A DNA stretch of 62,600 nt, filler included, from Diploschistes diacapsis (Eukaryota), in assembly GCA_023645945.1 (NCBI GenBank). It is 13 parts of 13 records of this genome, joined end to end, with 100 filler letters (N's around TTAATTAATTAA, not from the genome) between each part and the next. Parts side by side here need not be neighbours in the genome. Positions count along the whole stretch, not along the records: positions 33,882 to 55,972 come from JALAIB010000289.1; 12 more parts are not named here. One strand, 5' to 3'. The notes under the pieces are model-generated. The model saw nothing but the letters and a program-made list of their open reading frames with translations, searched no databases and was not told the DNA's origin. This document shows, piece after piece, positions 28,209-59,936 of this stretch. Position numbers and translations under genes: made by a program. The stretch's first letter is position 1, and the number at the start of each line of letters is the position of its first letter.

Positions 28209-28210
28209 TA

Positions 28211-30557: not shown

Positions 30558-31309
30558 CTAAAATACATTCGATCGTAATTACCTACTTTTATTTTCCTTT
30601 AATAACCTTTTAATTCGAGTCTGTTCGACTCGAAACGAAGGCTTTAAAAAAAGAACTATTATTAATATTAAAATTTAACTCGTTTATATTATAAATATAT
30701 TCGGGCGCGTATTATCTTTTATTATATTAAATTATTATTATATCGAATTACCGTTATATAGCCTTATAACTTATCGTATTAAATCTATTAAACTCGATTT
30801 ATTTTATCTAAATATTAATAATTTCAAAAAATCGTTTACGAAATCGCGATACCTAATGTTTACCGATAAATTAAAGATTCGCGATCGTAACTTTTAAATT
30901 CGAACCGAATCGAATACGTTCGCGTCGAATTTCTTCGGCCATATCTACCACCAACGCAGGCGATGCAGGAAAGCTAGTTTATATAAGACGTGTAATCCAT
31001 CGTACTAATATCTTTTCTTCTAAATTTAAGAAAATTTAAATCGTTTCGTGGCTATTAAAACATGATTAAGCTCCATTAAATCGATCTATAATGATCGATC
31101 GAGATACTTTAAATACGCGGGCAGTTTCTTGAATGCTAGTATATTATTATGATTTTAGGGCCTGTAAATAGTCGTTAATATTAAATTCTATTAAAATCGA
31201 ATTATTGCGATACGATGTAATCATTATTGAAAAAAATCGAATGTAAGATGAAAACAGTGATTTAAGATGGCCGGACTCTGGGGGTGGCCGGACTCACCGT
31301 CAAACACGT
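30558..31309 (-). mobile_element. Fot1/pogo transposon 5' end (TIR and HTH region), RIP-degraded
   Basis: TIR identical to 28165-28208 and flanked by TA; minus strand SIQETARVFKVSRSIIIDRFNG is HTH_psq-like. Confidence 0.85.
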
Positions 31310-31311
31310 TA

Positions 31312-31720
31312 TACGGATAACTTTAGGACACGTAAACCCTTTAAGAATCTAGATCACGTTAAAGTCGGACCTTTTTTAATCGATAAATAACCCGTTATAT
31401 TAGACGAAATCAAACGAGTTAATTACCGACTTAAGCTATCTAAAGATATTAAAATTCATTTAATGTTTCATTCCAGATACCTCGAATTAATATATTCAGA
31501 CATATCGTTATAAGAAACCTTTTATTTCGAACTAGATAACGAAAACGAGTACGAAATCGAAGTAATAATATATTATAAAAATAATAAGTATTTAGTTAAA
31601 TAGAAAGGATATTTAGAATCGGACATAATATAGGAACTAAAGGAAAACTTAAAGAATTATAAAATAAAATTAGCGAAATTCTACGATATTAACGGACCTA
31701 CTATTAAAGATAATTGGGAT
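31312..31720 (+). mobile_element. Gypsy/chromovirus integrase C-terminus with chromodomain, RIP-degraded
   Basis: KNLDHVKVGPFLI..VNYRLKL..IHLMFH, then EYEIEVI..YLVK*KGYLESDII*ELKENL (chromodomain YLVKWKGY..WEP.ENL). Confidence 0.8.
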
Positions 31721-32219
31721 TAAAGGTAAAAAGTTTACGGAACATACGTACATCTGATATAAAAATTAATCTGGCGGGACAGAAGCTTCGTTTTTTAAAA
31801 CTTAATTTAACTAACCCGGCGACATTACCGCCAATTCAAATAATTCTAAATTAAATTCCGATGGCAAATCTTTTTAAACGTTAGTATATATCTCGGACGA
31901 TTTTAAATCCAGTTTTTTCGTTAAATAACGCGTTTGTTCGTCAGCACGATTTTCCGTTAACTTAAGAATTTTTCGGTTACGACGAATGCGACGTTTACGT
32001 TAGAGACGACGATTTTTAATTTTACGGAATTATTTTTCTAGTTCCTTTTCTTACTTATTATCTTCGTTAGTAAGCTTCTTATTGTTATCGGATCTCTTCT
32101 CGTATCGAAAGGATAATTCNNNNNNNNNNNNNNNNNNNNNNNNNNNNNNNNNNNNNNNNNNNNTTAATTAATTAANNNNNNNNNNNNNNNNNNNNNNNNN
32201 NNNNNNNNNNNNNNNNNNN

Positions 32220-32814
32220 ATATTCAAGAAACGAAATAAGGATACGTTTTTTAAAATTATGCAGCGATGGCCTAATGTTATATTAAGAATGTAATTATTA
32301 TTAAATTTAAATTAAACGGTTCAGTTATAACACCTAAAGAACATTAAATAGGGGAAAAGCCGTCAATAGATCACTTCCGCGTTTAAAAATTAAAATATTA
32401 TAATTACGTGAATCTAAAATTATTATTTAGACGATAAGATAAGTTAATAAATAAAATAAAATTTTATATATTAATTAAATATATCGATATCGATAAGCAA
32501 TATAAGATCTAAATATTAGATCTTTAAAAGATTATTAAAACGAGCTCGGTTAAATTTAAAAAAAATAAAACATTTAGTTTTTAAGAACTAAAACTTCTCG
32601 AAAATTATAAAGAAAGTGATAACGTGATGTTTATCCGAAAGTTAATAAAACGATCAATCGTTGATTTAATATATAATATCGGGGGAATAAATATCTCGTT
32701 AATATTAAATAATAATGGTACGTTAATCACGGACGATAATAGGATATTAATAATATAAAAATAAGAAATTTAGAACGAATATACTGAATTATTTGAACCT
32801 GCGATGGATTATAG
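32220..32814 (+). mobile_element. RIP-degraded Copia post-integrase region
   Basis: TPKEH*IGEKPSIDHFRV*..YVNLK..R*DKL resembles the Copia PYEAW.G.KP...H.RVWG motif; homologous to 59140-59289 and 61046-61320. Confidence 0.75.
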
Positions 32815-33781
32815 TGTAAACATAAAAGTAGGCGGCAGACTTGGTGGGGGTAGTCCCCACAGGGCAGCTCCATTTAAGGAGGCCTGCTAGGTAGTTCTAG
32901 ACAATCAATGCATCCTACACCTCATAAATATCCTATCTAGGTATGCTGTTGACTACGAAATCACACTACATTCCTTTACTACATTATCTACGACTACCTA
33001 CCTATTACAGCAAGGGAAGTCTCCCTAGACAGCGCGCCTTGTATTTATAATGGAGGTTAACCTAAAGACTTGTCTAAGGACCCTTCCATATCTTACGAAA
33101 GGTAAAAAGAAAATTACGATCTAAAAGTTCTAGATATAATAAAAAGACATTATTTACAAAAATATAGAAAAAAAAAGGAAGGGGGTATATAATTGTCCCT
33201 AAATGACCTGCCAGTATTGGAAGGATAAAAGAATAAAATTTAATTAAGATATATTCAGAAAGTTAAGCTGCGAATAGATGAAATATTAAGAAAAAATTAA
33301 AAAACTTTTATTAAGAACGTACGATATAATATTTATCGGATATATTGTAAACATAAAAGTAGGCGGTAGACTTGGTGGGGGTAGTCCCCACAGGGCAGCT
33401 CCATTTAAGGAGGCCTGCTAGGTAGTTCTAGACAATCAATACATCCTACACCTCACAAATATCCTACCTAGGTATACTATTAACTACGAGATCATACTAC
33501 ATTCACCTACTACACCATTTACGACTACCTACCTACTACAGCAAGGGAAGTCTCTCTAGACAACGCGCCTTGTGTTTATAATAAAGGTTAACCTAAGGAC
33601 TTGTCTAAAAACCCTTTTACATCTTGTAAAAGGTAAAAAGAAGGTTACGATCTAAAAATTCCAGATATGATAAAAAGACATTGTTTACAAGAATATAGAA
33701 AGAGAAAGGAAAAGGACATTTCATTATCCTTAAATGATCTGTTAATATTAAAAGGATAAAAGAACAAAATTTAATTAAGAT
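32815..33781 (+). mobile_element. Two head-to-tail copies of LTR family A (531-bp period; second copy truncated by the contig end)
   Basis: TGTAAACATAAAAGTAGGCGG.. starts at 32815 and again at 33346; the copies differ mainly by C/T and G/A transitions. Confidence 0.8.
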
Positions 33782-34634
33782 NNNNNNNNNNNNNNNNNNN
33801 NNNNNNNNNNNNNNNNNNNNNNNNNTTAATTAATTAANNNNNNNNNNNNNNNNNNNNNNNNNNNNNNNNNNNNNNNNNNNNTTGATGTTGTATTCCGATT
33901 CGAGTGGTTGGTGTTTCTTTGCTGAGGAAAAACAGTGACAGAAGCTTGAAGAATGGATGGGATGTGGGGGGGGGGAAGAGGTGTTTTTGGTATGGATGGC
34001 AGTCTACTTGCGCCGATACAACCTCCAGGGTGGTCCAACCGTTAGCGTGCTCAGGATTTGGTAGGCCATATCTGCGAGGAAAATATGCTGTACGTTAACA
34101 ATTGGGCCTGCACGGGCTGGCTTCAAAGGCTGAACGTGATAAATAAATGAATGCCGCGGCGCGGGCGGGCGCGGGCGCTGCCTATCTGTCCCATTTGTCG
34201 AAGTCTAGCAGTTAACTTGCATGTTAACTTGCATGTCGAATGCAATGCCGAGCAGCTTTGTATGGTCACCGTCGTATTATCTCCTGTAGTAGTAGGTTGC
34301 GTTCTTGCAAAAGCACAAAGTACATACAGAGCCTCAACCCGCAAAAATTGAAACGCTCCTAAACACCTGAAACGCGGGGTTATTCATTCATCGGAACAGC
34401 GCCTGTGTTTATTAATACAGGTTGAGGATGTTAATAATCTCGTGCTCTTGCATGTTTCCTTCTTTTGCCCGGTGAGCGCTCTAATATCTCTCTGCTTCCT
34501 GAGCCTTTCTTTTCCCGATGGGTCTCTCATACTGAGCCTCGCTGCTCGCTTTCATTCTTTTGAACAGTCGCTCTTTGGCCCCTGGATAGAATCCGCCCGT
34601 TTCTATTCTCTGTATCTCAACAAATTCTTTCCAG

Positions 34635-35981
34635 ATGCGTTCTTTCAGAAGCGTTGCTGGCATCGCCACCGCTCTTTTCTTGACGACTTCCGTTCTCGCC
34701 CATCCCACGATTGAGAAGCGATATGACTTTGATCACAACGGTATTCCCGATGAGTGTGAGAAGGTTGGTAACGGGAACGATGCATGCCTGCTGGACAATG
34801 GCTCCTGGACCACCTTCGCAGCCGCCACAGCAACCTCGACCTCATCCGTAGTTGCATCTGCTTCTCCTCCTCCAGCAGCTGTTTCCCCTGCTGCACCTGC
34901 TCCGGATACTTCTAGTGGCCAAGGCACAGCCTCTGGCATGGCTACCGGTTCCCTTCCGTCGGCTTCGGACTTCGGATCGCAGAACGGTACTTCCTGGACC
35001 ATGGAATATGTCGGCAATCTAAACTACTCTGGCATTCTTGGCACTCAAGGGCTGCAGGGCGACAAAGCGCGCAGCTCCGTCGTCGGCGGCAAGACGATCT
35101 GGAACTTCGGTGATATGGACTGCCCGCCCGACTACACCGTGTGCGGGTTCAGTATGGGCCCTGCAATGTACGACACCACAGGCGACTTCACCATGAACAC
35201 GAAGGGCATCGCCAACATCAACGACGCCCTGTTCGCGAGCAATTACAGTACAGACGGTACTCCTCAGGACTCTGGCTGCTCGGCCTGGGGCATGGACAAT
35301 TCCAACATCGCTGCCATCAACGACACTGCTGGCGTCGTCTACAGCTGGGAAATGTACCGTGGCTGCACCGACAATCCAGCCGGTGTCAACAAGGGCCTCG
35401 CCGTCTCTCTAGTCACGATAGGCGACGACTTCCCCGTAGCCACCCGCCTCGGTCCCCTTTTGACCGACGGCTCCGCCGTGCAAGTCGGCCTGCTCGCCGT
35501 CCTCGCCGCGGAGAACTACATCTACAGCTACACCGTCTCCGGCAGCAACGTCCTCGTCGGCCGCGTTCGCCCCGCCAACAACGCCCCCTTCAGCGCAGAC
35601 AACTACGAGTTCCTGTCCTCCGACGGGCAAACCTGGGTGCCCGGCATCCCCTCCGCCGCCGACGCCGGCAACTTCAACATGGTCACCTCGCAGCAAGGCG
35701 GATGGGGCTGCTCCGTGTACGGCAGCGCCATGTATTCCAACTACTTCAACCAGTACATGCTCTTCTGCGACGATTACGAGAATTTCTTCAACTTTTACAC
35801 CAGCGACACGCCGTACGGCCCGTGGAGCGACCAGTACCAGATCATCAAGGGCGTGCAGGGATACGGGAGCATGGTGCATCCGGGGTACTCGCCGGGTGGA
35901 AGCAATAAGGTGCTGTATATAAGTCAGGGGCCGAATACGGTCTTCGATGTGTGGAAGGTCACGTTCGGGTATGATGATTAG
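34635..35981 (+). CDS. Secreted 448-aa protein, putative DUF4185-like beta-propeller hydrolase
   Basis: Signal peptide MRSFRSVAGIATALFLTTSVLA, Kex2-like KR site, Ser/Thr/Pro linker, strong C-ending codon bias, motifs IWNFGD and YTSDTPYGPWS..YGSMVHPGY. Family assignment is tentative. Confidence 0.7.
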   Translation: MRSFRSVAGIATALFLTTSVLAHPTIEKRYDFDHNGIPDECEKVGNGNDACLLDNGSWTTFAAATATSTSSVVASASPPPAAVSPAAPAPDTSSGQGTASGMATGSLPSASDFGSQNGTSWTMEYVGNLNYSGILGTQGLQGDKARSSVVGGKTIWNFGDMDCPPDYTVCGFSMGPAMYDTTGDFTMNTKGIANINDALFASNYSTDGTPQDSGCSAWGMDNSNIAAINDTAGVVYSWEMYRGCTDNPAGVNKGLAVSLVTIGDDFPVATRLGPLLTDGSAVQVGLLAVLAAENYIYSYTVSGSNVLVGRVRPANNAPFSADNYEFLSSDGQTWVPGIPSAADAGNFNMVTSQQGGWGCSVYGSAMYSNYFNQYMLFCDDYENFFNFYTSDTPYGPWSDQYQIIKGVQGYGSMVHPGYSPGGSNKVLYISQGPNTVFDVWKVTFGYDD

Positions 35982-37338: not shown

Positions 37339-38990
37339 GTTCCGTTAGAGAGGAACATTCGATTTACTGGCCGTACTGAGCAATTGGCCAAGCTGGAGGA
37401 GGTTGTTACTTCTCGCGGTCAACCCTCCAAATTCGCGAATCCCGGTCTCGGAGGAGTAGGCAATACACGGCTCGCTATTGAGTCTACAGAATCCAAAGCG
37501 AACTTCCAGGTTACTCCATATTTCGGACACCTGCCATGAATTTCGATACTCTACAACAGGCATGTTTGAACGCAGTCCAGCAGCTTGGAAATCGTGGTTT
37601 AGGACAGGACAAAGATGACGCTCAAGCTTCTAAAAAGCATCTAGAGAATCTGAATGCAGGCCGCTGGCCACTCAGATATGACAATGCCGATGATCTTGGC
37701 ACGTGGCTTACTAGTGATGAGAATATGTCTCAGAAGCCAGGCCTTGTGAAATTGATCCCACTGGTCGAGTCATCATCACCACGGCAAGAGACAGCAGAGT
37801 TGCTGTACGGCTTGCACGAAAACATGTACCGAAAATACCGGATGAAGACAGCAAGATGGCCCAACAGTTGGCACGACAATCCCTTCTCGACACAAATCAT
37901 TTTAGAGAACGGGACATCAAAGCCCTAACCTCCGAGCTTGTACAACCTTCCACTAACAGTCGAGCAAGCAACTGCTTACATAAACGAAACTGGGACACCA
38001 ATCTCAGACTGTCTCTCTATCTGGCGGCAACAAGATCAAAATGCCATTGAATTGCTCAGTGGAGACTTTGAAGAGTATGGAAGACACCGGAATAGCCGGA
38101 TTGAGGTTACTGCGACGTGGTTGATATCTTATGAAAAGATCCGGGCTCATTGTCCTCTAGCAATCGAATATCTGTCGTTTATGGCCTGCCTAAATTCTAA
38201 AAACATTCCTCAATCACTTCGTCCTCCTGCCGCATCTCCAAAAGCGTACGCTGATGCGGTTGGGATACCTGATACCTATTCTTTCATAACGGGACGACCT
38301 GAGGACGCAGCTCTTGACCTACATCCACTGCTACACCTCATTACAAGAAATCGGCTCAGGAAGCAAGGATTGCTAGTCCCGTGGGTTCGCAAGGCAGTTT
38401 TGAGCGCAGAAGCAAGCCATTACGTTCAAAGCTGCATTTCTACGCGTAAAGCATGGATGAAGTACATTCCACATGCACAAGATGTTCTGGATTTGGTGGG
38501 ATGAACGTGGCGAAGCAGATAAAATGACCTATATTGAATTATGGAAAAATCGTGGTGAACACCAGATTAGTCTCGGCAGAGACTGGGGATGCGAGAAGCA
38601 AGCCTGCAACTTACTTCCGTTACTTAGAGCGAAGTTTGGCCCATGCATCCACATACTCTGCAACTGAAGCTAGATTTGGCAAATACATATTCCGGGCGAA
38701 GAGGTTGCTAGAGGCGAAATCGTTATGCATTGACATGATAGACCGATTGCTGCAAGTTCACCATTCTGACGGTCACTATCCACTGAAGGTTGTAGCTGAT
38801 TTGCTTGGGAAAGTGTATCATGACGCGGGTCGACTCAGGAGGCCGAGCATCTTCACTTGCTGGTGCTAGAAGCCGCCAAAATGTATTATGGGGCTGAGGC
38901 GCTATCTACAGCACACACAATATTCCACCTGCGTTAACATACAAGAAGCAAGGACGATGGGGGGAGGCTGAAGCACTGCTACTATCTTAC
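37339..38990 (+). pseudogene. NB-ARC + TPR (fungal NLR-like) pseudogene
   Basis: VPLERNIRFTGR, Walker A GLGGVGNT (K to N), Walker B-like WPLRYDNADD, NLPLTVEQATAYI, TWLISYEKI, LHPLLHLITR and TPR remnant TYKKQGRWGEAEALL, spread over several frames with stops. Confidence 0.8.
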
Positions 38991-39621
38991 CGCCTATGTC
39001 CGACAAGGGGCTTCGTAGATCAAGTCGAAGCAGCGACTGCGAACCGTGGCCGCAGTGATCTAAATCTCACCGCTCAATACATATACACGGTGCTCAGTCC
39101 TCCGAGTGCGAAACATGAGGTCTTTTCGCATGCGTCTCAAAGCTGTTTCGTTTACTTTCGATTTATTGGGTACAGTGGCGAACAGAAAGCATTGTGCACA
39201 GAGATGATGGTTCGATATGGAAAATATAGGGATGTAGAACGCAGTCTCAGTTTGTCCGAACAGCAACAGAGCGATACTTCAAATGACATAAAACCTTTGG
39301 CAACATTCCGTCTCCAGGTGCGTCTCTTCTAACCCGCAAGCCAATCTCAGAGTTCCTCTCCCGGGACCTCTGAACCTCTTCGCTGGTCTCTTGCTCCTCC
39401 GGCTCTGAGTGTACTTCCGATGGTCAATCCACAAACTCCTCACCCAATCCCTCGCCGCTCCACCTCGGGCGCTGCCTCCGCTTGGCGCTCCATGCGCTCT
39501 TTGTCCCTCTCTCTTCCACGACGCTCCAACAACGGAACGTCCGTCGAACCAGGCACCAGAGGCCTCGGGCCCAGGAAGGGCTGACGCTACTCTCCAGCTC
39601 AATGTCCGTGTCTCCGGGATT

Positions 39622-40020
39622 TCAGATCTTTCCCCTGGTCGTCAGTGCCGCGACCGGCGTCTTCTTCGACAAAGCCTTCTCGTTGATTACTGTCTACCCT
39701 ATTAGTCTCAACCCGTTACAACCCAACGGAACAGGGGTTACAGAAATCCAGGAGGACTCACGCTTATAGGCCTCGAGCCTCTTCTGCGCACTTTGAGAGG
39801 CGCCGGAAGACGACGACCCGGAGGTGGACGTAGAAGTGGAGCGATGGGAGCTCTTCTCGTTCACGGAGGAGCCGAGGCTGGTGTAGGAGGAGTTTCTGGA
39901 GGAGAGGAGCTTTGAGAAGGGCATCTTGGCGGAAGAGGACTTTTTGGAGCGGGCGGGGTCGGCCTTGGGGTTCGACGGGGCTTGGAGGATGCTGTGGGCG
40001 GAGAAGATGGGCGCCGGCAT
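39622..40020 (-). CDS. Small Ser/Lys-rich spliced protein of unknown function; exons 40020-39762 and 39689-39622 (alternative start 39924)
   Basis: GC-rich codon bias, GTGAGT donor at 39761, CTAAT branch, CAG acceptor at 39690, CTATATAA box at 40250-40243. Confidence 0.5.
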
Positions 40021-42388: not shown

Positions 42389-45300
42389 CTACCCGCTGCC
42401 AACGCCAACTCCCATCTCCCCTCCCCGTCTCACTATCCACTCCAGCATCCGCCAAAACGCCTCTTCCGACATCGCCATCTGCTCCTTGGCTCTACTCATT
42501 GTCGGGCTGAATCTCTCCGCCATCCATGTGTCGAACTGCAGCCCTCCCCCCTTTCCGCTCGCTTTTCTATCTGCCATGGACGACCTCGAGTCGGTAGCAG
42601 ATGCCTTCCACCCCTCGCGCCAGAGTCCAAGCAGGTTCTTTGCTGGGTGATCACTCTCCAGACTTTCTAGGCTGTCTAGCCACTCCTGCGCCGGGATGAT
42701 TTGGATTGGCTGCACGCGAGAACGGATTGGAGTGGAGCCCGAGTGAACGGTGCTGTTCTGTCCTTGGGTGAGCCATCGTTGCACATCCGCCCACGTGGTG
42801 CCATCGGGACCGCAGTTCAGGACGTGGTAGACCACCACAGCTGAGCCACCGCTACGGTCCATTCGAGCCTGCTCGTCTTGCAGCAGCGCAATGTCCAGTA
42901 TCGACCGTGCAGCCAGGTCTACCGGCAGCCAATCCAACCTTCCCAAACCCACGCCGTCCAGATCAGGGAGCTTGCCGCCCATGCATCGGATGCCCGCGTC
43001 GAGCATCATCGGCCACGCCTCGCGCATGTTCCAAATCCCAGTGCTGGTGGACCCGCAGAGCTGGCCGACGCGGACAATGTCTGGCTGCGGGCGGGGGTCG
43101 TCTGTTACAGCAAAACGATCAAGGAGCTTCTCGGCAACCCACTTGCTTCGGCCGTAACCCGTACCGGAAGCATCTTTGGGGTCTTTGGAGATTAGCTCAG
43201 GAACCGGCGTTTGGGGGCTGGAGGTGGCGCTCGCGGTTGAGGAGATGAAGGTGAAGGAGACGGAGACGCCTCTCCTGTCTTGGCTTAGAGCCGCAATGTT
43301 GTAGAGGTTGACGAGGCCTCGAAGCTGTGTTTCAAAGTACGCGAGCGGGATGTTGAAATTCACGGCCCATGCTCCATGGATTACGTCTGTGACGCTGCCG
43401 AGAATGTTGCGGAATTCTTGAGGACTGAGGCCCAAGGTCGGCGAGTCCAGGTCTGCTGCGAGGTATCGGACTGTGGGGCCTTGTTCGGCCGGCAAGGGTA
43501 GGTCGTACGATTCGAGAGACGACTGGACTCGCAGTCGAGCAAGTGCAGAGGGCTTGCCTCCAGTCTTGACAGACGGTAGACGAACGGGCAAGATGACAGT
43601 TGAGACTTGTTGCACCTGAAGCAGCTCGGCGAGGATATGGGCTCCCAAGAAGCCAGTGGATCCGGTAAGAAGAACGACCCTGCCTCCTGCGTCTGGAGAA
43701 GTCTCTGCCCTTGGGGGGAGCTCCATTGCCTGGCAATCATAGATATGAGGCTGCAGTCTCACGAAATCGGTAACCAGATCCATCATTCGCCCCGAGAAAT
43801 AGATATCGCTTCCGTCCATAGTTGCTGCAAAATCTACGCCAAGCTCCCCAACAATTCCAGCCAATTTCCTAACGTTTCCTGCCTCGTAAACCACATTCAG
43901 GGCTAACCGCTGCGCAACCGCAGTCGACAATCGAGCTTTAATGCGGTTGCGAATTTGCATGCAAGCCATCGAATCGACACCTTCCCCATAAAAGTTGCTG
44001 TCGAGACTAGGTAGCTCCCGTCCAATCTGGCTCTGGACGATGGAGGAGATCTCCCTCACCCGTGTTTCGTAGTCTTTCGAATCTAATGCCGCTGCTCCTT
44101 CGCTTCGCGTTGCTGGCTCTTTATACAGATCCTGAATCTCTTGAGCAAAGCTGGCAGCGAACTTTCTACGCATGATTGTTCCCTTGCTGCTCTTCTGGAT
44201 CTTTGGGGCTTCCGAGGAAGGGAGTATCCTGACCATGTCCCTCTCAATCCGCGCATGGGAAGGACAGCCCTCGTTGACCTTTCTCACAACCTCCCAAATC
44301 TCAGCTTCTTTTGCGGAGTCTCCAAGACTCTCGGCTGGACCTATGAGGAATAAAAGAGCGGCAGGACGCTGCCGATTATCTCCAACAACTACAGCATCTT
44401 GAATCAAAGAAGAGGTGCATAACGCAGATTCGATTCCTGCCGGATCGAACTTCTTCCCCGTAACCAGCGTTATCTGCACATCAGAGCGCCCGCAATATCG
44501 CCAAGCACTCGGAATAGTCGGATGAGGCTGGAAGACATCATGGGAATTGAATGGTAGGTTATCATGGATTGCAGGCGAAAGAGACGGCCAAGCTTCTGAC
44601 ACAACAAGCTCATAATCCGTATCGTTCCACTTTTGAAAGTTGAAGGAGTCCACCAACTCATGTTTCCGAAGAAACTGCCACTCTTTGTCCTTTTCAAAAT
44701 CACGATGGGAGGACAGAAGGAAGCCACACTCTCTGCTCCCAAAGCGACTGACTAGATTGACACCGTCTTTGACTAGCTTGTCTCCCAGCTCGCCAGGCAT
44801 AGCTGCTCCCCCAACGCCAACCATTTCCAGGTCGCGAAGCCATTGCATGAGCGCCTTGTTTCCTACCATCATCTGCACCACAAAAGGCACGCATGAGAAG
44901 TAGCCAATCGGCGCAGTCCGATCCTGGTTCGCCTCATCTTGCTGCCATGCGTGAGCAGCCCCCAGGAATCGTAATACGTTCTGTTCTGTAACGGGAATCT
45001 GGTCTTCGGGGAACGTCCACAGTGTTACTGCGGCGCTCCACGAGCGCCAGAGATCAGCGAGACCGCCAGTGTATATGGGTGTGGTTGTGAATGTGCTGGG
45101 CGCGTTGCTTTGGGAGTTTGACTCGTGAAATCGAGGAAGAGCTCCAATCTCGTCACAACTTCTGATTGGTATGGGCTTTGGAAGGCCTGTCGAGGTTCCA
45201 GAGGAATGGCCGTAGAGGACGATGTCCTCACCATTAGCCGCAGTGCTCGAGGTTGAAGTGGTGGCACTACATGACGGTTTCGTTTCAAGGCGGCGAATGT

Positions 45301-46263
45301 CATCCACGCCGGTCCACGCGATTCGTAGTCTTGTAGGGTGCGCTACCGACGGGACGGCATTGATCTTACCTTCGCCATTCGCCTCATCCATCGAGGACAA
45401 GGCAGCTGATACCGCAGGTTCATGCTTTTCGTCAAAGCAGATGGCAATAGCACCGCAGGCTTTCAGCAAATGTCTAATTGCATCCCTGCTGCATGCCGTT
45501 CTGTACTTCCATCGCTCTCTGAATCAGCTATCCACGCTTCATCGGCATCATATACACAGTAAGCTTGACTTACGAAATAAGAATGACTTGGTAGCCAGCT
45601 CTAATCCAGCCCAACGTGATCAGCAAGTATATAAGGGAGCTTGAAGCGTAGAGAGCTACAGCTCGAGATTGCGTCGGCGTGCTTCTCTCGCCAGCACAAT
45701 CACTGCCCAAGCTTGTTGCTGCGCTGTCTCTTTGCCGCTGCAACTCTGCATCGAGCCAGTCGCCGGCCAGTGTAGAGAGATCTTTGACATCTTGGAAAGC
45801 TTTGAGGTGGAGTAAAAAACCACGGTCAGTTTATGTGACCAAAACTTATAATGAAACACCGAGAGAAGATATTCTAATCCATAGGGACATGATCCAATCT
45901 AACAGGCTCGGTATGCTCACCCGTGTTTGATATGATAGACCATACCAAACTGGAGAGACAGCTTCAATATGATCAAGAAGGAAAACCAAAGCAGCATCAC
46001 AGAGATTAACTGAGAAACGTCGACGTACTCAGCCCCTCAACCTCCCACACCCTCTCTTCCCCATCGGCACCGCTCTCCACATCTTGCTTTCTTTTAGGGG
46101 GACCGACAGAAGCCACGGCCACATCATCACCCCTCGTATTGGCGAGATAATCTACAAAGCCGTTGATGGTAGTGTATGATCTCTTCGCTGGGAGGGTGTC
46201 ATTGAGAATTTTTCCCTCGCCCAGGGTAGCGGTGAAGTATGATGCCGGTGGTGGGGTAGTCAT
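42389..46263 (-). CDS. NRPS-like adenylation-thiolation-reductase (carboxylic acid reductase type); exons approx. 46263-46029, 45799-45574, 45500-42389
   Basis: A-domain motifs HSSGTSTGLPKPI, SRFGSRECG, GRSDVQITLVTGKKFDP, KSSKGTIMR; carrier Ser in GVDSMACMQIR; R domain LTGSTGFLG, HGAWAVNF, GYGRSKWVAE, RVGQL. Confidence 0.92.
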
Positions 46264-46656
46264 TGAAACGATGAGTGATGGGATGTAGGGACGGGAGCTT
46301 GTAAAGGTAAGATATATCCTTCTCTAGAGCTTTAAGAGTTGATACTACATGTACCGTGCCTCTTTTTAGACGCATAGGAGGATCGATGAGTGAGTGATAT
46401 CAACGTTTGGGAAAGAATGAACTATCACAGGTTGCATGTTTGTGGGAGCTTTTGTGGCCGTGAATCATGTCTGCCAGGAAGGGTGGCATGAGCCGTCCCT
46501 TTTTACCCTGGTTAGACGAAGGAAAGGAAATCTCATTACAGCGCGGGTAGCTGGTGTCTCCTTCCTGAGCTGTCTGTACTAACTTTTATTTTTCGAAATT
46601 GCTGCCATTCGCTTGACTGTCTACTCGTTGTCCGAGCACAAACTTTCCAAGATGCG

Positions 46657-48355
46657 TCAGTGAACGCGGTTGGAGTGACCGTTGACACCATTTGTCACGC
46701 TGTTAACGTAGCCATTAGCGAGGCCATTTGCAAGCTCAGACTTCAACGAGCCGCTGTTCGCTTGCTTCAAGTCCTGTTTGGCATGCTCTTTAATGTCCTG
46801 CTCGATCTCCTTCTTGTTATCTTTGGCATCTCCCGTGTCAGAAGCGTCGACGTAGGCCTCAATACCCTCACCCTTCCTGGGATAGTTTTGAGTGATGCTC
46901 TTGTGTACGCCCAGGATGCGCTTCAAGTTTTCATTGGTATAGTCGTTGACGAATGTGCATCTGCCAAGAGGTCCAGGAGTAGCCAATCGGAGCTGACCAT
47001 CACGGGTCCTCAGAATTGCGGCAGTGGCCTTTTCCAGCACATCTTCGTTAAAGTCCAGATGATCGATTGAGAGACCGGCTCTCGAGAACAGTTGAAGCAA
47101 TCTCGAGTGCTCCTCCTTTGAGATGAGGCCCATCTCCAAGCCAATAGTAGCAGTGTATGCCATATCAATGCTGATCGCGTGGCCATGCCGCAAAGGCGTT
47201 TCCGGAACAAGTTCATGGAGGGGGGACCAGCTGCGACCCTTAGTTCTATGATACGCAAATGGTATCAAGGTACGTACGTATGACCGTATGCAATTATCCT
47301 ATCGAGGCCGATCTCGTGGAGGTTCGGCGATTCTAGCTTGAGCATGACGTGGATCGCTTCTTTGCAAATCTTGTCGGAGATGCGCTTGATCTCGGCGCTG
47401 CTGCCCTCAGCACGTCCAAATCTCGTGGCGATGATTTCCTCGCAGTGGGCATCCAGGAGCTTGAAAGTCTCGAGATCGGCACAGGAAGTAATCTTGATGA
47501 TCTCTGCGAAGCCATTGCGGACCTGCGCGGTAGGTAGTGTCTTGAGGAAGTTGAAGTCTAAGAACGTGTGGATCGGGGCCTGATGGCTTGTGAGTGGCCG
47601 ATCTCAGATGGGGTCTAGCCCTATTCTACTCACGTGATATGCACCCTATAAGACTGGTTAGCATGGGGCTTGGGAACTAGTAGATTGATAACTTACTAAG
47701 CGATTTTTGTAATTTCCGTAATTCACTGCAACCTTGATGCTGACACTTGCGTCGATCAGTCCAATGACGGTTGTAGGTACTCGAATAAAGTTGGTGTTGC
47801 GGCGGTAGCACGCAGTTGCGAAGCTGCAACAACCCAAATGGTTAGCAAGGCGCCTCTGGAGAGGGGACTGCTGTCGCGACGTTCAGTCAAAATACTTTGA
47901 CTGGGTCCGAAGAACTTTTCATTACCCAGCAACATCAGTGACGAGTCCACCACCAACGACAAGGACGGGCTCCTGAACACAGATCAGTTGGCTGCTATTG
48001 TAGCATTGTAGGTTGGATATTTAACCTTCCTGATGATGCCGAAGCTGTTCATGGCATCAACAATGCCAAGCAAGCTTGTGATGTTCTTGGCCTTCTCTCC
48101 AACAGGCATTGCGTGAACAGTCAAAGGGAGTTGGTAATTGTCAAAATAAGCTCGCATTTCATCCCCGTACTGAGACTCCATGTTCTCGTCCATGACAGCG
48201 AGTACACGCCCCCATTTCTTGTAACAATCGGCAAGCTGGTGTTTTGTCGGGTGAAACACGTTGTCGAGGAATTGGAAGTCATAGTTGATCTTTTCGTACC
48301 CAGCAACGGAGAACCCTCCCTGGATCTCCGTGACGGTTGCACTCAGGTCCGACAT
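46657..48355 (-). CDS. mysA: Desmethyl-4-deoxygadusol synthase (sedoheptulose-7-phosphate cyclase, DHQS-like); exons 48355-48026, 47972-47926, 47823-47697, 47645-47634, 47579-47278, 47230-46657
   Basis: Spliced protein contains [86 protein letters not shown] and [12 protein letters not shown], the DDGS-type signatures. Confidence 0.92.
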
Positions 48356-49616
48356 CGTGGAAAGTAGTAAGCTGAGGATAGTGAAGGGGTGATAAAGAAG
48401 AGGTAAGGGAATGAGCAAGGGCAGGCAAGCGAACCCCGGAAACATGGGGTATGACTCTGCGCCTTATATGCTAGGCACATTGAAGACACGAGAATGCTGA
48501 GATTTTCTAAACTTGCATGACATCTTCGCTCACCTAGAGACGCTGAGGTCTACTCAACAGGATATGTCAATCACTGACCGGAGAGCAGGGATTCATCGCT
48601 GGAGGATAGAGTGGCCTTGGTCGAGTCCCAGGGAAGTAGACAGATTTGCTCTGCACGTGCAAGATCTAGACGTCTGCCCCTTCTTCTTTCTCAGATTAGG
48701 TTCAGATCTTGCATTTTTCCAGTCAAAGTTTCCCGCCCCAATCGTCAATCACAAAGCGTGCTGTCGTGGCGTCATTGCATGCCATTGAGCCTCAGGTCAT
48801 CATGAAGTCATACAATTGGGGTATAGTGCATGGATAACTCGGCGAATCCTAGAAGAAAACCCATGCCCAGTCCAAAGCAATTGGTCTTCCGGAGGAAGTC
48901 GGATGATCTAAAAGGCCGATCTCTGCCAACAAAAAACTGTAACGCTTCGGGCATGATCCGATGGAGCGGATTCAGGTTACCTTGTAGTTATGCACTCAAC
49001 TACCTTCAGGTTGGAAGGAACGCATTGAAATAGGTGCAAGATCGTCGCAGGCGTCGTAGGATTTCCAGGGTTAGCCCTACGGAGATAGGACGATCATGAC
49101 CTAAAAAGACTAAAAGCGCGTCCGTAAGTTCTATGACACACTTTCCGTTGGAGGGCCTAGACCGATGCATACCCCATACTGTAATAGAAGTGGGAAAGGA
49201 GAATTAACTGCCAACTGTGAAGGTTAGAAAGTTCATGCATGGATAACATCACTACTGTGACCAAAGTTGCCAGTTTGCGTCCGGTTAAAGTGCGCCAAGA
49301 GTGGGGGAGAAACAGCCAGCAAAGTTCTCTAATAGGAAACTGCGCCAGAGAGGAACGATCGTCCAATGCCGTGGGGGATGTTTCTTCAGAAACAGTTCAG
49401 TACCAATGGGTGATAATATCATCACGTCTTTTGACAGTCGCCTAGAGCATGTTGGGGTCACGGCTGGCCCCTATCGGCTTTATCCACCGGCAAGTCATAA
49501 ATTAAAAAGAACAACAAAAACGCTGTTGAGCGAAATAAGAGCAATATTCTGCAACTCATTACTATAGAGACTGTTTGGAGAGGAGGAAGCTAGTTACACA
49601 GATGGACAGCTCAGCA

Positions 49617-50537
49617 ATGACCCACTCACCAGTGAGCCCCGACACTGCGGTCTATAGGGCAAAGGAAGTGAACAGCCCATTTGTAAGACATTGCACTCCG
49701 CAAAGCTCGATGAAACAGTCGTTAACCGGGCCACGATAGTTCAATGATGGCCGCGAAGAGCAACTTCTGGATTATGTACAGAAGACCGTGGGTTCGTCAC
49801 CGTCGTCCCGCAGCCCGCGGCAAGTCCTGCGCCTCATAGACGAATATGGTGCGAAACACAAATATCTCATGAATGTGGGATCGCAAAAGGGCAACATCGT
49901 TACAAGCCTGATAGCCCAGAGAAAGCCAGGATGCATGATTGAATTGGGGTCCTACATAGGTTACTCAACCATTTTATTCGCTGATGCTGTCAAGAGCAAC
50001 GGTGGTAAGCGATACATCTCATTCGAGCGCGACCCGAAGTTCGCTGGTGTTGCTCGAGCGTTGGTTGAGCTTGCTGGCCTGAGCGACGTCGTGTCCTTCG
50101 TCGTAGGCTCCAGCTCCAAAAACATATTTAAAGAGCATGCAGCAGGTAGGCTGGGAACCATTGATATGATGTTTCTCGACCATTACAAGCCTGCGTATGT
50201 TCGGGATCTGAAAATATGCGAGTCTCTCGGTCTCATCAGCAAGGGGACAGTGTTAGCCGCGGATAACGTGATCTTCCCTGGGAACCCTTCCTATCTGGAA
50301 TACGTCAGAAGTTCTCCACAGGAAAAAGAGCGCAGACTGGCTGAAAAGGACGCCAACGGTTCAGCTGTCGACCCAAGGTTTCAGCAAAGGACTATAAACC
50401 AATATGACGACGTCGAAGAAGATGATGCCGTGGCCCCTGGAAACCCGAAGATCGTGTATGAAAGCAAGCTGGTTCACGGCAGCGAGCCTACTGGTGAACC
50501 TGATGGTATCGAGATCACCAGGTGCATAAGCGTATGA
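49617..50537 (+). CDS. mysB: SAM-dependent catechol-O-methyltransferase-like enzyme (4-deoxygadusol-forming OMT); exons 49617-49682, 49740-50537
   Basis: FNDGREEQLL, YLMNVGSQKG, ELGSYIGYS, FLDHYKPAYVRDLK, AADNVIFPGNP; divergent from DDGS. An in-frame upstream ATG at 49602 is an alternative start. Confidence 0.85.
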
Positions 50538-50576: not shown

Positions 50577-52100
50577 CTACATGACAAACATCTTCCCTGT
50601 GCTTACGTTGATCTGACTCCAACGTGTTCCGGACCACGAGGCGCTTACCAACTGACCCGGCCAGTAGATGTGATTTAGAACAAACCAGGGCAATGGATCC
50701 CACCATTCAAACGTTGGATCTTTCCAAAGTGTAATATGCTTCCAAAATTCGAAATGCGACTGCGTTAGGTCCTTGAGAGACCCGGACCCGAAGAGAAATT
50801 GCAGCAAAGGAAGGACGCCTAGGACGATAAGATCATGCGCTATCCAGTAATATCCGGAAGATTCTTTTGTATTATTACCCACGAGCAAGTCCGGTACATA
50901 CGGATATGGACTTGATCCTTTTTCAGGGGGCAAAAGAGACAAGTAAGCTGTGGTCAAGGCCAGCTCATGTCCTCGAAAGTGCACAACCGCGGTATGACAT
51001 CTAGGGTTGCACTCAATTGGCAGTAGGGTCTTTTTCATGCCAGCCACCGTGGGCTCATTGAAGGCAAGAAAGTCGAAAGACAGGTGTCCCGAAAAATGGC
51101 CGTATTTGGCGTACATGCCAGTTGCATAAGTTTGGGTGAACCTCAGCATAGCCTGGAAGAGCGGAGATGTGGCGTCCAGAACTTCGTAATGCATCAGAAT
51201 GGAAGCACTCGGACACGCTAGGAAAGCGCGGACGTGGCCGTCGACCACAAGGGATTGCGTGCAATATTCTTCGCTTCCGGGTATGTACTGTTGCATGATC
51301 CAGCTAGCATGGTGGTAGTCGAGACTATCGAGGACATCGCCCATTTGCTTGGGTCGGTCCGCACTCAAAAGGGGTAGAGCACCACGTGTACGGTCATCCA
51401 TCGCAACATTCTTTAGTATGAACTCGTGAGGATGCGCTCCAACTGTCTGAGGAGCCGGACCGCGAACGACATTCTCGGCATCTCCTGGACAAGTTAGAGA
51501 ACCCCATTGGGGAACAGGCAAGCCAAAGCTCGCAGTAGTTCTCATGAATTCGTATTTATTGTCCAGCTTGAATGTAGCATCCTCGTTGAATTGATACGCT
51601 TTGCATGAAGTTTCACTCTCTACCCTTTGCATCAATCTGGCGTCCTCTAATGCTGTAGCTACGCCGGAACAGCTGACCCAGAGATCTATCTTCTCCTCCT
51701 TGATTATTCCTAGAACCTGGTCGATGTAGATACCAATGCCATGGTTGCCTGTTGGGATCCTCAGCGAATAGAATTTGTCTATCGTTTTAGAGAATCTGCC
51801 ACACACAGGCACACCATGTTTTTCAAAGTCCGCAGCGACTATGGAGCAACCGCCAACATGTAAGGAACGAGCCAGGAAGAGTCCTTTGGCCATACCGACG
51901 CCGGTGACGAGGACCCTAACTTGACGTTTATTGCGAGTGACTGGCGGTCCCTTTGGATCCTTGGTAACCGATAAGGTCATAGCGACCTGTGCTAGAAGCA
52001 TGATAGATAGGCTTATAGGTAAACAGGCAACGCTTAGAGCACATAAACCGAGATTTCGAGCAATCTGCATAGCCACGTAACGTCCTTTCGCCATGACCAT
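50577..52100 (-). CDS. mysC: ATP-grasp C-N ligase (mycosporine-forming)
   Basis: VLVTGVGMAKGLFLAR, GRFS, DLWVSCSGVATALED, QQYIPGSEEYCT, GHLSFDF, PIECNPRCHTA, WKDPTFEWWDPLPW, INVSTGKMF; adjacent to DDGS and OMT. Confidence 0.88.
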   Translation of the reverse strand: MVMAKGRYVAMQIARNLGLCALSVACLPISLSIMLLAQVAMTLSVTKDPKGPPVTRNKRQVRVLVTGVGMAKGLFLARSLHVGGCSIVAADFEKHGVPVCGRFSKTIDKFYSLRIPTGNHGIGIYIDQVLGIIKEEKIDLWVSCSGVATALEDARLMQRVESETSCKAYQFNEDATFKLDNKYEFMRTTASFGLPVPQWGSLTCPGDAENVVRGPAPQTVGAHPHEFILKNVAMDDRTRGALPLLSADRPKQMGDVLDSLDYHHASWIMQQYIPGSEEYCTQSLVVDGHVRAFLACPSASILMHYEVLDATSPLFQAMLRFTQTYATGMYAKYGHFSGHLSFDFLAFNEPTVAGMKKTLLPIECNPRCHTAVVHFRGHELALTTAYLSLLPPEKGSSPYPYVPDLLVGNNTKESSGYYWIAHDLIVLGVLPLLQFLFGSGSLKDLTQSHFEFWKHITLWKDPTFEWWDPLPWFVLNHIYWPGQLVSASWSGTRWSQINVSTGKMFVM

Positions 52101-52689: not shown

Positions 52690-53879
52690 TCAGTTATTAG
52701 TTTCATGACGATGCCTCCGAGTCAAGCTCCCAAACTTGTTGGCAATCTGACCTCTTGCTGAACTGTTTCTTCTTAGCCCGCTTTCCCACTCCGAGTAACT
52801 CTGAGCATTTCCCGAAGCCATCGCGCTGTTGCTTGATGCCCGGTCTCTGTTGATGGGGGAGCGCCCATTAATGGACCGTCGCGGATGATCCTGCATCTCT
52901 ATACCACTTTCAGAAGCGTGCCTTCCATGACCTTTGGCCTTTAGTGCCCTCTCGACCGAGTATGAGGGCTCGCCTTTGCCTTTCCGGTCATCAGGGTGAT
53001 AGTCCTAATCCGATTAGCTATAACCAGCCAGGGGGACGGTGCCACCCACAACAAGGCCTGGCCAATGGTTCAGATAGTTCTTCTCGCCATCCCGTTGCAC
53101 ATCGGTACCCTCTTCGTATTCATAAACTTTGCCCGTCAGGCGGTCTGGAACGCCTGGAGGAATCTGAGCCACTCCATCAATCGGTCTATGATGCCTGAGA
53201 CTATCTGAGATGCTTGCTTCGGGGGTAGCCTTCAGTGCTTCCATGTTCGAGTCTAACAAAGCAGCTACGGGGGCCCCTCTTGATTTAGAGTTGCGAGCCA
53301 GGCTGACGGCATCATAGGGACCTTCGTGATGAAAGCCGTCCCCAATCTCTCCTAGTCTGTCAATAATATCCAAGCCATGGTGTCGATCTTTGCGCAGATG
53401 TGGAGATCGATGAGCCCTTTTAGACTCTCTGCGGATGATATCCAAAGGGCGATGCGATTCATCGCCGTTGTATCGTTCGCTCAAAGACGATCCTCGACGA
53501 CGCTCATGGCCTCCCTCCGTAGACGTTCGAGCGGACGCGGCTCGCACCGATGAAGTAGGAATCTCACTTGATTGCCTTGCGGAGGGTCTTCCATAGTGAC
53601 TGCTTGATTCCCCTGTGAGTTCCGATAATACTGATCGATGCCGTCCTACTGAATCTGGCGGACTAGGATGGGACCCAATTTCATGTACAGTCGCTTCGGG
53701 CTGCTTCTTCTCCTCTTTGGGGGCCACGAAGTGCGTGCCAGGCCCTGTTTCGGTGCTTGGTGATGGCGCATTGAGAGGATCAAGAAGGTATTTGGTGGCC
53801 TCGCACAGCGTAAGGTTGATTGGTTGTGTAGGACAATAGACAGTCAACTTACCCACTGCTTATCTTCTGAGCTCTCCAT
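52690..53879 (-). CDS. PAL1: Pal1-family cell morphology protein; exons 53879-53853, 53799-53050, 53004-52690
   Basis: KYLLDPLNAP, RPLDIIRRE, DIIDRL..FHHEGPYDA..ARN..APVAAL, DDRKGKGEPS. Confidence 0.8.
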
Positions 53880-54434: not shown

Positions 54435-55652
54435 ATGGCGCTCGTCGGTTACTCTTCGGATTCCTCCAACACGAGCAACGCCCAGCAACAGCCTCCAGCG
54501 AAGCGCAGACACCAAATTCCCACTACTCCTCCCAAGGATGCCAAGAGCTCACTACCTCCTCTCCCCTCTTCATTTCTCGATCTCTACTCCGCCCCAGTCC
54601 GAACGAGCGCAGCCGATGACCCGTCCCTCCACGGCGGAAGACAGAGGATAACTCCGCACGTGGTAGGCAACTGGCCCACGCACGTCTATACAGAGTGTAA
54701 GCCTTCCAAACTCCGCACAACTCAATCACGACTCACTCCCAGCATCTGAACCTTATATAGAGAGTGCGGCTAAGAACCTTGAGGGCACCCCTCCCCAACA
54801 GAATCCCTACTTCTCTCGAGCATCATCCAAAACGTTCACAGGACCTCCCTCAACTCTCCAACCTCTCAGTCCTCTCCTTCACTCCCCCAAACCAATGCCC
54901 CCCAAATCCACTCCCTCCTCCACTCCCCTCTATCCGTGCCCCTTCCCCTGCACATTTCCCTCTCCCGCTCCCTCAACCTGACTACGTCCCAGCGAGATGT
55001 CTTCCCCACCCACATCGGAACCGCCATCGAGAAATCCAATACCGGAACCTTCTTCATCACCCCCATAGCATTGAAATGGGTCCCCAATTACCCCCGTACG
55101 CGCTGGTTCCTCGTGCTTGCGCTCGCAAGGCCGGAGGGGAATCAGCTGAACAAGCTCCTGGCCGCCTGCAACAAGGTCGCGCGACGCTTCGGTCAAGGCG
55201 AGCTCTACAGCGGCGGCGGCAGCGGCGCAGCGACTGCTGTGGGGAGCGGCGCGGTGCCAGCCCCAGGCGAAGAAGAGGCAGCAGTGGCGGACGTGGAGAT
55301 GGACAGTGGCGCGCCCTGCACAGCATCTGCAGCTGCGGCGCTGGGCATCCAGAACGGCAGCGGCAACGAGGCACCGTCTGATCCGTTCCACGTCAGTATC
55401 GCGTGGTCGCTATCGGAGCCCGGGGCCGATGTTTCGCGGGTGCAGCCGCAGCCACAGCCACTGTCCGAGCATGGCACGGAGAGCGCCGAGAAGCAGTTGG
55501 AGCTGGACGCGCTGGAGGACCTGCGCGGGCTGCGGGTCCCCGTTGCGGCCGTGAAGGTGAAGGTGGGAAACACGATCAGCAGTATACCGCTGGCCAAAGA
55601 GGCGAGAAGGGTTGAGGAGGAGAGGGGGAGGAAGAGGTGGCTTGGGGAGTGA
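54435..55652 (+). CDS. USB1: U6 snRNA 2H phosphodiesterase; exons 54435-54696, 54784-55652
   Basis: MALVGYSSDS, DDPSLHGGRQR..HVVGNWPTHVYTEW, and two HxS motifs (PLHISLSRSL, FHVSIAW). Confidence 0.88.
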
Positions 55653-56072
55653 TATCCACGCTGTCCCAAGTGACGGGCACACGGAAGAGCATCGTAGTTT
55701 CCAGCGAGACGTAGCGATGGACTACAGAGAACCAGAAGAAGAGTGTGGAAGAGTGCGAACACTTGATTCCCGCCATGGCCGGCTTAGCCTTGGCCAGTAG
55801 GGCGAGCTCCCTATCACACAATACAGAATAAAAGAAAAATGGATGCCGGAAAGAAGCTCCTGTGCTCCGTCTGCTTGAACTGGCTTGCTCAAAATCGAAC
55901 ACGCATGTCCCTCCCTCCTCCCTCGAAACAATTTCCTTCTTCACCAACGCCTCCCATCCCGCTCGTTATCCCNNNNNNNNNNNNNNNNNNNNNNNNNNNN
56001 NNNNNNNNNNNNNNNNTTAATTAATTAANNNNNNNNNNNNNNNNNNNNNNNNNNNNNNNNNNNNNNNNNNNN

Positions 56073-57124
56073 CCTTCTTCTCCCTCCCCCCCTCCTCCTC
56101 CCTCACGGGCCCGCGCGTGGAATCCCACCTCCGCGCCCTCGGCTTCGGCTACCGCGCCAAATACATCCACCAGACCGCCGTCCTCCTCGCGCGGCGCCCG
56201 TCGTCCTGGCTCGACGGCCTGCGCAACCCGGCCTGTCCCGCCTTCGCTTCCGGCGCCGCGGCATCACAGCCGACGCTGGCCCCGCTGCAGCCAACACCAC
56301 CGCTCGCTACCAGCGACGCCGACGCCGAACCGCCGATGCCAGCGCAGGGCCGGGCCGGCTACCGCGCGGCGCACGCGCAGCTGCTGGCCCTGCAGGGCGT
56401 GGGCCCCAAGGTGGCGGACTGCGTGTGCCTGATGGGGCTGGGGTGGGGCGAGGCGGTGCCGGTGGACACGCACGTGTGGGCGATTGCGCAGCGGGACTAC
56501 CGGATGGGAAAAAACAACAAAGGGGCTCGCGGCGGCGGCGGCGGCGGCGGCGGCAGAGGACGGGCGACGACGACGACGCTGACGAAGGCGCTGTACGACG
56601 CCGTGGGCGACCACTTCCGCGCGCTGTGGGGCGCCGAGGCCGGCTGGGCCCACAGCGTGCTCTTCGCCGCCGACTTGAGGGCCTTCAAGGCCGACGCGGC
56701 GAGCACGCGCGGGAAGAAGGCGGCCGAGGTCGCGACGGAAACGCACGGGCTCGACGGCGAGCGGCGCGCCACCGGCCCGGAGACGCAGTTCGTCCGCGTC
56801 AAGCTCGAGGACGCCGCGGCCGAGGCGCCCCCGAGCACGCCGCTCGGCACGACGCCGACCGGAGGGGTCGGGAGCGGGAGGAAGGGGAAGAGGAAGATGA
56901 AGAGCGAAGCCGACGCGGACGCGGACGCGGACGCGCACGAAGGCGGGCGTGGGGCGAAGAAGAGGGCGAAGGCGACGACAAAGGTCGAGCGCCAGGAGGA
57001 GGAGAAGGAGCCGCCGAGGCTGGGCCAGAGACGGAGCCTGAGGCAGAGTCTGCGGAGGAGGAGCAGGAGCAGGAGCAGGAGCAGGAGCGGGAGCGGGAGC
57101 GCGTGGGGGGGCGTTGGCCAGTGA
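56073..57124 (+). CDS. OGG1: 8-oxoguanine DNA glycosylase/AP lyase, 5' truncated
   Basis: LRALGFGYRAKYI, HhH-GPD LQGVGPKVADCVCLMGLGWGEAVPVDTHVW..AQRDY, LWGAEAGWAHSVLF. Confidence 0.9.
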
Positions 57125-59922: not shown

Positions 59923-59936
59923 CTATGCAAATCATC

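Follow-up and report, generated by a model that had tools for sequence, protein, structure and literature searches.

A 62,600-nucleotide stretch of the assembly GCA_023645945.1 of the lichen fungus Diploschistes diacapsis (13 parts joined end to end, referred to as the window) encodes a protein with adenylation (A), carrier (T) and thioester reductase (R) domains, the A-T-R protein, and the gene for it adjoins three genes (mys) for mycosporines, which are UV sunscreens. The domain architecture is complete, the catalytic motifs are intact, and linkage of the gene to mys genes recurs in other lineages. We consider it likely that the A-T-R gene belongs to the mycosporine pathway. A narrower reading, that the enzyme reduces the side-chain carboxyl after condensation with 4-deoxygadusol, is given slightly less than an even chance. 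The enzyme type is already known; what is new is its place as the fourth gene of the fungal mycosporine cluster.

For decades, fungal and lichen mycosporines have been known to carry reduced side chains (glutaminol, glutamicol, serinol), and we know of no enzyme assigned to the side-chain reduction. The amino-acid moiety carries, to our knowledge, the sole carboxyl groups in the pathway, and therefore a carboxylate reductase acting in it would yield glutaminol, glutamicol or serinol side chains. The original prediction was made with no biochemical demonstration of this step in view, and the literature searched (subscription journals and supplements lay outside it) likewise contained none. Lichen fungi are described as producing mycosporine-glutamicol in the available text of PMC9318770. 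A 2023 review does not treat side-chain reduction in the part at hand (PMC10666671). Nonribosomal peptide synthetase (NRPS)-like “myc” clusters, for “yet unidentified mycosporine-like compounds”, are listed for most Hypoxylaceae in PMC8403587; the co-location had therefore already been noticed, without a side-chain reductase being proposed in the available sections of that paper.

Gene model, domains and motifs

The A-T-R gene is on the minus strand. Its coding span is exactly 42389-46263, with the ATG at 46263, and the spliced product of 1190 amino acids (aa) has no internal stops. The intron donors are GTACGT and GTAAGT. Two acceptors are possible for intron 2, and the one at 45501/45500 was taken because the full-length homologue P0008 is continuous across the junction. 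Pfam searches (E 0.001) were run on P0001, the exon-3 translation, which omits the first 146 residues of the full protein. The gene and its parts, from open reading frames (ORFs), a splice model and Pfam, are:

42389..46263, minus strand: gene for the A-T-R adenylate-forming reductase, 1190 aa in 3 exons, with the stop codon at 42389-42391
46029..46263, minus strand: exon 1, the A-domain N-terminus, with the conserved SYFT..TL..G start common to the homologues
45800-46028, minus strand: intron 1 (splice model)
45574..45799, minus strand: exon 2, whose junction agrees with P0008
45501-45573, minus strand: intron 2 (splice model)
42389..45500, minus strand: exon 3, the remaining A domain followed by the T and R domains, stop included
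44117..44482, minus strand: AMP-binding_C_3 (PF23562), the C-terminal A subdomain (Pfam 5.5e-33)
44183-44185, minus strand: A10 lysine, residue 593 of the full protein (K447 in P0001), invariant in the alignment
43856..44053, minus strand: carrier (T) domain, PP-binding (PF00550; Pfam 7.1e-6)
43970-43972, minus strand: Ser664 of the full protein (S518 in P0001), the phosphopantetheine serine in GVDS, invariant in 20 of 20 sequences
42392..43669, minus strand: thioester reductase (R) domain including its C-terminal subdomain (NAD_binding_4, PF07993, 1.7e-29; TGxTGFLG motif, Tyr936/Lys940)

The enzyme had originally been described as having adenylation, GVDS carrier and NAD(P)H reductase domains, and the gene model, the Pfam matches and the invariant motifs confirm this. 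A 20-member alignment of the family contains an invariant P-loop Lys (K116 in P0001 numbering), A5 Glu (E265), A7 Asp (D329), A10 Lys (K447), carrier Ser (S518), TGxTGFLG motif and Tyr/Lys pair (Y790 and K794). The AMP-binding core PF00501 did not reach E 0.001 on P0001 in the Pfam search; it is present in most homologues by precomputed annotation. A profile of 16 full-length A domains of the family aligns to nine canonical NRPS A domains with an hhalign probability of 99.8% (E 1.8e-29). With its A, T and R domains, the predicted protein shows each of the three features that define a stand-alone adenylate-forming reductase.

The R domain has its nearest match in that of the Neurospora carboxylate reductase (CAR) 8aep, at 3.4e-27 by sequence and 5.2e-49 by profile, followed by the myxalamid R domain and then the PCP-R structures of bacterial CARs. 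In an AlphaFold2 model the R domain matches 8aep with a TM-score of 0.77. This model was built on P0001 with an alignment of 20 rows (mean pLDDT 72, A core poorly modelled) and used for domain-level fold matches only. Foldseek also matched it, with an A core of low confidence, to benzoate-CoA ligase and a CAR A-PCP structure. TIGR01746 matches the A-T-R protein at 1.1e-37 with 130 bits, under its curated cut-off of 213.

Several named enzyme types were considered and rejected. The protein scores 49 bits as a bacterial CAR (NCBIfam NF041592, cut-off 1300) and 71 bits as the Lys2 alpha-aminoadipate reductase (TIGR03443, cut-off 1030). The glycine betaine reductase ATRR is defined in the available part of PMC8403587 by the order A-T-R-R, with two tandem reductase domains. 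The window protein has a single NAD_binding_4 stretch, and the profile places positions 675-1094, its entire C-terminus, on one 8aep R domain. It is also not a MysE-type ligase, as the C-terminal domain is R and Pfam finds no thioesterase (TE) domain. The label “Adenylate-forming reductase Nps10” carried by a homologue is an automatic transfer, and the Protein Atlas gave generic A-T-R clusters only.

Recurrent linkage to mycosporine genes

The fungal mycosporine core, a DDGS-like cyclase, an O-methyltransferase (OMT) and an ATP-grasp ligase (ATPG), is present together in the window, with the A-T-R gene as a fourth gene. The OMT gene is divergent from the cyclase gene. Downstream of the cyclase and on the same strand, the A-T-R gene starts after a spacer first estimated at about 390 base pairs (bp) and now measured at 393 bp. 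Homologues of the cyclase carry the names demethyl-4-deoxygadusol synthase or EEVS, and the cyclase is putatively one of the two.

46264..46656: spacer from the DDGS stop codon to the A-T-R start codon, 393 bp
46657..48445 (about), minus strand: DDGS-like sugar-phosphate cyclase gene with introns (DHQS_C and aroB matches, exon mapping)
49740..50537, plus strand: OMT gene, 5′ end provisional (PF01596, 9.2e-15)
50577..52094, minus strand: MysC-type ATP-grasp ligase gene, 505 aa (PRK06849, 7.7e-38; homologues and mapping)

A synteny survey, which the original prediction had called for, gave results on both sides. A metagenome scan with the family alignment yielded 69 loci: 48 (L001-L048) encode family members and 21 (L049-L069) are non-family. 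Locus flanks were searched with the mys ORFs of the window, and a locus counts as unlinked when at least 5 kb on both sides are without a mys gene. The A-T-R gene adjoins mys genes in 10 of the 48 family loci, which represent eight lineages once two near-identical pairs are merged. Another nine loci (seven lineages) are unlinked, and in 29 the flank is too short for judgement. A mys match was found in none of the 21 non-family loci.

Linked (10 loci, 8 lineages): L001, L003, L010=L029, L012, L022, L030, L033=L034, L046
Unlinked (9 loci, 7 lineages): L006/L009, L013/L014, L018, L026, L032, L042, L038

Two of the linked loci, L030 and L046, are close relatives, and the unlinked L038 is a divergent branch that is possibly non-orthologous. 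Three gene orders occur among the linked loci: OMT reversed followed by DDGS and A-T-R forward, as in the window; A-T-R forward, DDGS reversed, then OMT and ATPG forward; and A-T-R forward followed by ATPG and OMT reversed. As a control, all ORFs of at least 100 aa from the loci and from 34-58 kb of the window were clustered. The only window ORFs with homologues in the loci are those over A-T-R, DDGS, OMT and ATPG (one cluster is an antisense ORF overlapping DDGS). Since these four genes are all that the window and the loci have in common, the linkage is not explained by a broad syntenic block.

Protein homologues point the same way in some genomes. Ten A-T-R homologues (among 120 listed) are on contigs identical in size to that of an ATP-grasp homologue (among 120 listed), with sizes of 16105, 28299, 29083, 64610, 201006, 273721, 417285, 649910, 955420 and 2458394 bases; identical size suggests one shared contig and does not prove it. 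Three of the pairs are on contigs of 29 kb or less (16, 28 and 29 kb), and four of the 10 also agree in species name (Pseudovirgaria, Tothia, Caeruleum and Pycnora). Half of the pairs fall among the eight homologues P0003-P0010 (at least 44% identity); P0011, also at 44% or more, has no pair. The DDGS search placed the A-T-R and DDGS genes of Baudoinia on the same scaffold. Powdery mildews have reduced genomes and little secondary metabolism. The powdery mildew Golovinomyces cichoracearum retains the A-T-R protein and the ATP-grasp ligase, along with a protein bearing the name demethyl-4-deoxygadusol synthase (P0055, P0149 and P0324).

The A-T-R family is conserved across Pezizomycotina. The closest relatives of the window protein share 53-60% identity with it and the closest named protein 37-38%. 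For linkage-state counts a FastTree of 161 rows was rebuilt, with which a quick IQ-TREE of 42 rows agrees; its root rests on partial bacterial sequences and its support is given by SH-like values only. This tree can be explained with four changes of linkage state. Tight mys linkage occurs in three of the four major clades:

Window's clade, 19 rows: the window, P0006, P0007 and P0009 tightly linked; a further five on a shared contig; one unlinked
Clade near Venturia and Stipitochalara, 9 rows: L003, L010/L029, L012 and L022 tightly linked
Clade near Cladophialophora, Baudoinia and Cryomyces, 29 rows: L001, L030, L046 and L033/L034 tightly linked; four unlinked
Lichen clade, 91 rows: no tight links; 14 members unlinked and two on the same long scaffold

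Linked members adjoin named Lecanoro-, Dothideo-, Leotio- and Eurotiomycete proteins in the trees. The deepest split has Dothideomycetes, Leotiomycetes and Lecanoromycetes to either side. It separates Tothia from Venturia (both Venturiales) and Thelotrema from Stictis (both Ostropales). The tree suggests two old paralogue types from an ancient duplication, each with mys-linked members. We read the mys linkage as old and probably lost repeatedly, most visibly in one lichen clade.

Other genes were found beside family members. A PDR-type ABC transporter recurs beside unlinked members, upstream of the A-T-R gene (L004/L006/L007/L009, L008, L019, L018 and L026), and Rit1 adjoins the A-T-R gene in some unlinked loci. 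In three lichen-clade lineages without adjacent mys genes (L005:2610-3839, L008:2033-3040 and L013:17734-18807, the last equal to L014), a GT8 glycosyltransferase is found 2-7 kb away from the A-T-R gene, in varying position and orientation. It could be a mycosporine glucosyltransferase. Ordinary lineage synteny explains the link equally well, because the GT8 gene is found only in related lichen-clade loci.

The window sequence is fungal: in it are spliceosomal introns, AT-rich blocks (about 30% GC) and the housekeeping genes for PABP, a HECT ligase, TIP49, a BET bromodomain protein and Utp12. To the right of the cluster are Pal1 (53014-53859, minus strand), an HVSL (USB1-like) gene (54783-55652, plus strand) and an HhH-GPD repair gene (56021-57124, plus strand), none of which recurs near the cluster in the other metagenome loci. 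Five successive plus-strand ORFs at 37482-39769, probably one multi-exon gene, and a 463-aa plus-strand ORF at 34590-35981 have no Pfam match at E 0.001. Blocks of 28-35% GC at 22001-34000 and 58001-62600 lie within sequence of 48-57% GC and resemble AT-rich isochores of the repeat-induced point mutation (RIP) type. No ORF of at least 110 aa begins at 22-34 kb, and across the window just one such ORF lies in either of these blocks.

Proposed reaction and competing explanations

We predict a reaction that begins with a phosphopantetheinyl transferase, which would prime the carrier at Ser664. The A domain would adenylate a mycosporine at the alpha-carboxyl of its amino-acid moiety. The most likely substrate would be mycosporine-glutamine or mycosporine-glutamate, made from 4-deoxygadusol by the neighbouring ATP-grasp ligase. 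The acyl group would be transferred onto the carrier as a thioester, and the R domain may use NAD(P)H to reduce the thioester to the aldehyde. The aldehyde would go on to the alcohol, giving a glutaminol or glutamicol side chain, by a second reduction in the R domain or through a general aldehyde reductase. We infer the substrate, the order of the steps and the choice between two- and four-electron transfer.

The A domain offers a clue to the substrate. In canonical NRPS A domains, Asp235 of the A4 motif (FDxS) is the residue that we take to bind the free alpha-amino group. The profile alignment places FDxS on Tyr297-Thr298-Gly-Gly of the full A-T-R protein, and the column equivalent to Asp235 holds Thr, Ser or His in 16 of 16 family members (Thr298 in the window protein), never Asp or Glu. 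As no acidic residue occupies this place, an N-substituted substrate such as mycosporine-glutamine or mycosporine-glutamate is favoured over a free alpha-amino acid. The specificity positions 278-331 were not used, the bacterial template having six extra residues between A4 and A5; an invariant Arg at position 322, read by hand, was likewise not used.

The enzyme may instead act at an earlier step of the same pathway, reducing free Gln, Glu or Ser to an amino alcohol or aldehyde that the ATP-grasp ligase then joins to 4-deoxygadusol. All of the mys-linkage evidence is shared by this order of events, and A-T-R enzymes that reduce free amino acids exist; the Thr, Ser or His found in all 16 members at the Asp235 equivalent speaks for the later step, and free amino aldehydes are, by established chemistry, unstable. 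The available text of PMC10057719 assumes that the ATP-grasp ligase incorporates glutaminol, while that text and the available part of PMC10666671 give amino acids as the substrates used by MysC-type ligases. We regard reduction before condensation as unlikely.

A number of observations weigh against the reduction of a mycosporine-amino acid by this enzyme. Conservation throughout Pezizomycotina makes a non-mycosporine role possible, and nine of the 48 family loci (seven lineages) are without a mys gene over 5 kb or more to each side. The lichen clade of 91 rows has 14 unlinked members and no tight links. In Xylographa bjoerkii the A-T-R and DDGS genes share a 126-kb contig, at a distance of 23 locus tags. 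Separate contigs carry the A-T-R gene and DDGS or ATPG in at least 12 named species (Candelaria pacifica, Squamulea squamosa, Circinaria calcarea, Haloplaca sp. 1, cf. Caloplaca sp. 3, Pyrenodesmia sp. 2, Pyrenodesmia sp. 3, Ikaeria aurantiellina, Xylographa soralifera, Lambiella insularis, Pseudocyphellaria aurata and Golovinomyces cichoracearum, the last with short contigs). The Asp235 argument hangs on a single profile alignment of a divergent A domain.

The remaining objection comes from the literature. In the part of PMC10057719 available (2023, Phaffia), the fungal cluster is composed of three genes, with no A-T-R gene in the Phaffia cluster; the ATP-grasp ligase “incorporates glutaminol”, and DDGS, OMT and ATPG alone yield mycosporine-glutaminol in Saccharomyces cerevisiae. 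A 2024 paper still credits this work with revealing the pathway, in the text available (PMC11567843). According to a figure legend in PMC10057719, the product was identified by co-injection in reversed-phase high-performance liquid chromatography and by UV spectra. The main text contains “mass spectrometry” 0 times and “LC-MS” in the reference list only. The S. cerevisiae product could be the unreduced acid form.

Many of these objections would also fit a conserved Pezizomycotina carboxylate reductase that acts on another substrate and is unrelated to mycosporines, its adjacency to mys genes being an inherited accident. The family is widespread and often unlinked, as in the nine loci, the lichen clade and the 12 or more species with separate contigs. 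Other neighbours (the PDR-type ABC transporter, the GT8 transferase and Rit1) occur at unlinked loci, and three genes are enough according to the available text of PMC10057719. An accident of inheritance is harder to reconcile with linkage that recurs in three gene orders and three of the four major clades, with mys genes as the only neighbours in common with the window, and with the retention of the A-T-R, DDGS and ATP-grasp genes in G. cichoracearum. We consider this explanation improbable.

A role in the pathway with other chemistry, for example aldehyde release followed by amination or cyclisation, or addition of a second substituent, has a precedent in the cyanobacterial NRPS-like fourth gene MysE, which adds a second amino acid (PMC10666671, available part), and in R domains that can stop at the aldehyde, as in the closest relatives, the CARs, but it is very improbable given that Pfam finds no TE or condensation domain in the A-T-R protein, that only oxo-mycosporines are reported from fungi (PMC10057719 and PMC3083659, available text) and that the known fungal side chains are alcohols.

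Reduction of a mycosporine-amino acid after condensation is the explanation that we prefer. The original prediction that the A-T-R enzyme adenylates and reduces the carboxyl of a mycosporine-amino acid (or of the free amino acid) stands in part: the recurrent linkage and the intact motifs support it, the lack of an Asp235 equivalent fits the mycosporine-amino acid better, and the unlinked loci, the separate contigs and the three-gene product of PMC10057719 weigh against it.

A fuller proposal, which we make more tentatively, is that the enzyme may fill the place of a missing fourth core enzyme in ascomycete mycosporine biosynthesis, ancestrally clustered with the mys genes and carrying out a four-electron reduction of mycosporine-Gln or mycosporine-Glu to the glutaminol or glutamicol forms, with two ancient mys-linked paralogue types that maybe tune the side chains. 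If this is true, the published three-gene model of fungal mycosporine-glutaminol is incomplete. Side-chain reduction receives no attention in the genetic study of 2023 on the fungal pathway, and the clustered A-T-R gene makes the question testable with one added gene. Such a role would complete the toolbox for heterologous production of fungal-type sunscreens. It would also give a function to a widely conserved fungal NRPS-like family that genome-mining tools routinely flag as orphan.

Comparison with known systems

The Neurospora crassa CAR (8aep) and the bacterial CARs (5msc, 5mso and 5msp) have the same A-T-R order as the window protein and are the best match for its R domain in sequence and fold. 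The implied logic is also the same: adenylation, thioester formation and reduction with NADPH. In contrast to the CARs, the window protein has a strongly divergent A-domain core, on which the alignment of PDB profiles stops at the P-loop, its gene is in a mycosporine cluster, and its 49 bits are to be read against the NCBIfam CAR cut-off of 1300.

The second-best match for the R domain is that of the myxalamid enzyme MxaA (4u7w and 4w4t; 1.3e-18, TM-score 0.76). The MxaA R domain is an alcohol-forming, four-electron reductase, and this outcome is the one that the R domain of the window protein would need to reach. MxaA belongs to a polyketide synthase-NRPS assembly line, whereas the window protein is a stand-alone A-T-R.

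The A domain of the glycine betaine reductase ATRR is presumably also without the usual amino-binding Asp. Like the window protein, ATRR (cited in PMC8403587) is a conserved fungal stand-alone adenylate-forming reductase. It has two R domains, while the window protein has one, the C-terminal tail of which aligns to the C-terminal subdomain of 8aep.

MysE of Anabaena variabilis, in the available part of PMC10666671, is an NRPS-like fourth gene on a mysA-B-C core, the same position that the A-T-R gene has here. MysE is an A-T-TE protein that ligates serine to form an imino-mycosporine; the window protein ends in a reductase and is without a TE domain. The MYC cluster of Phaffia rhodozyma has the same three core genes as the window, including the divergent DDGS/OMT pair. 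As described in the available text of PMC10057719, the Phaffia cluster consists of these three genes with no reductase, whereas the A-T-R gene is the fourth gene in the window and in at least eight other lineages.

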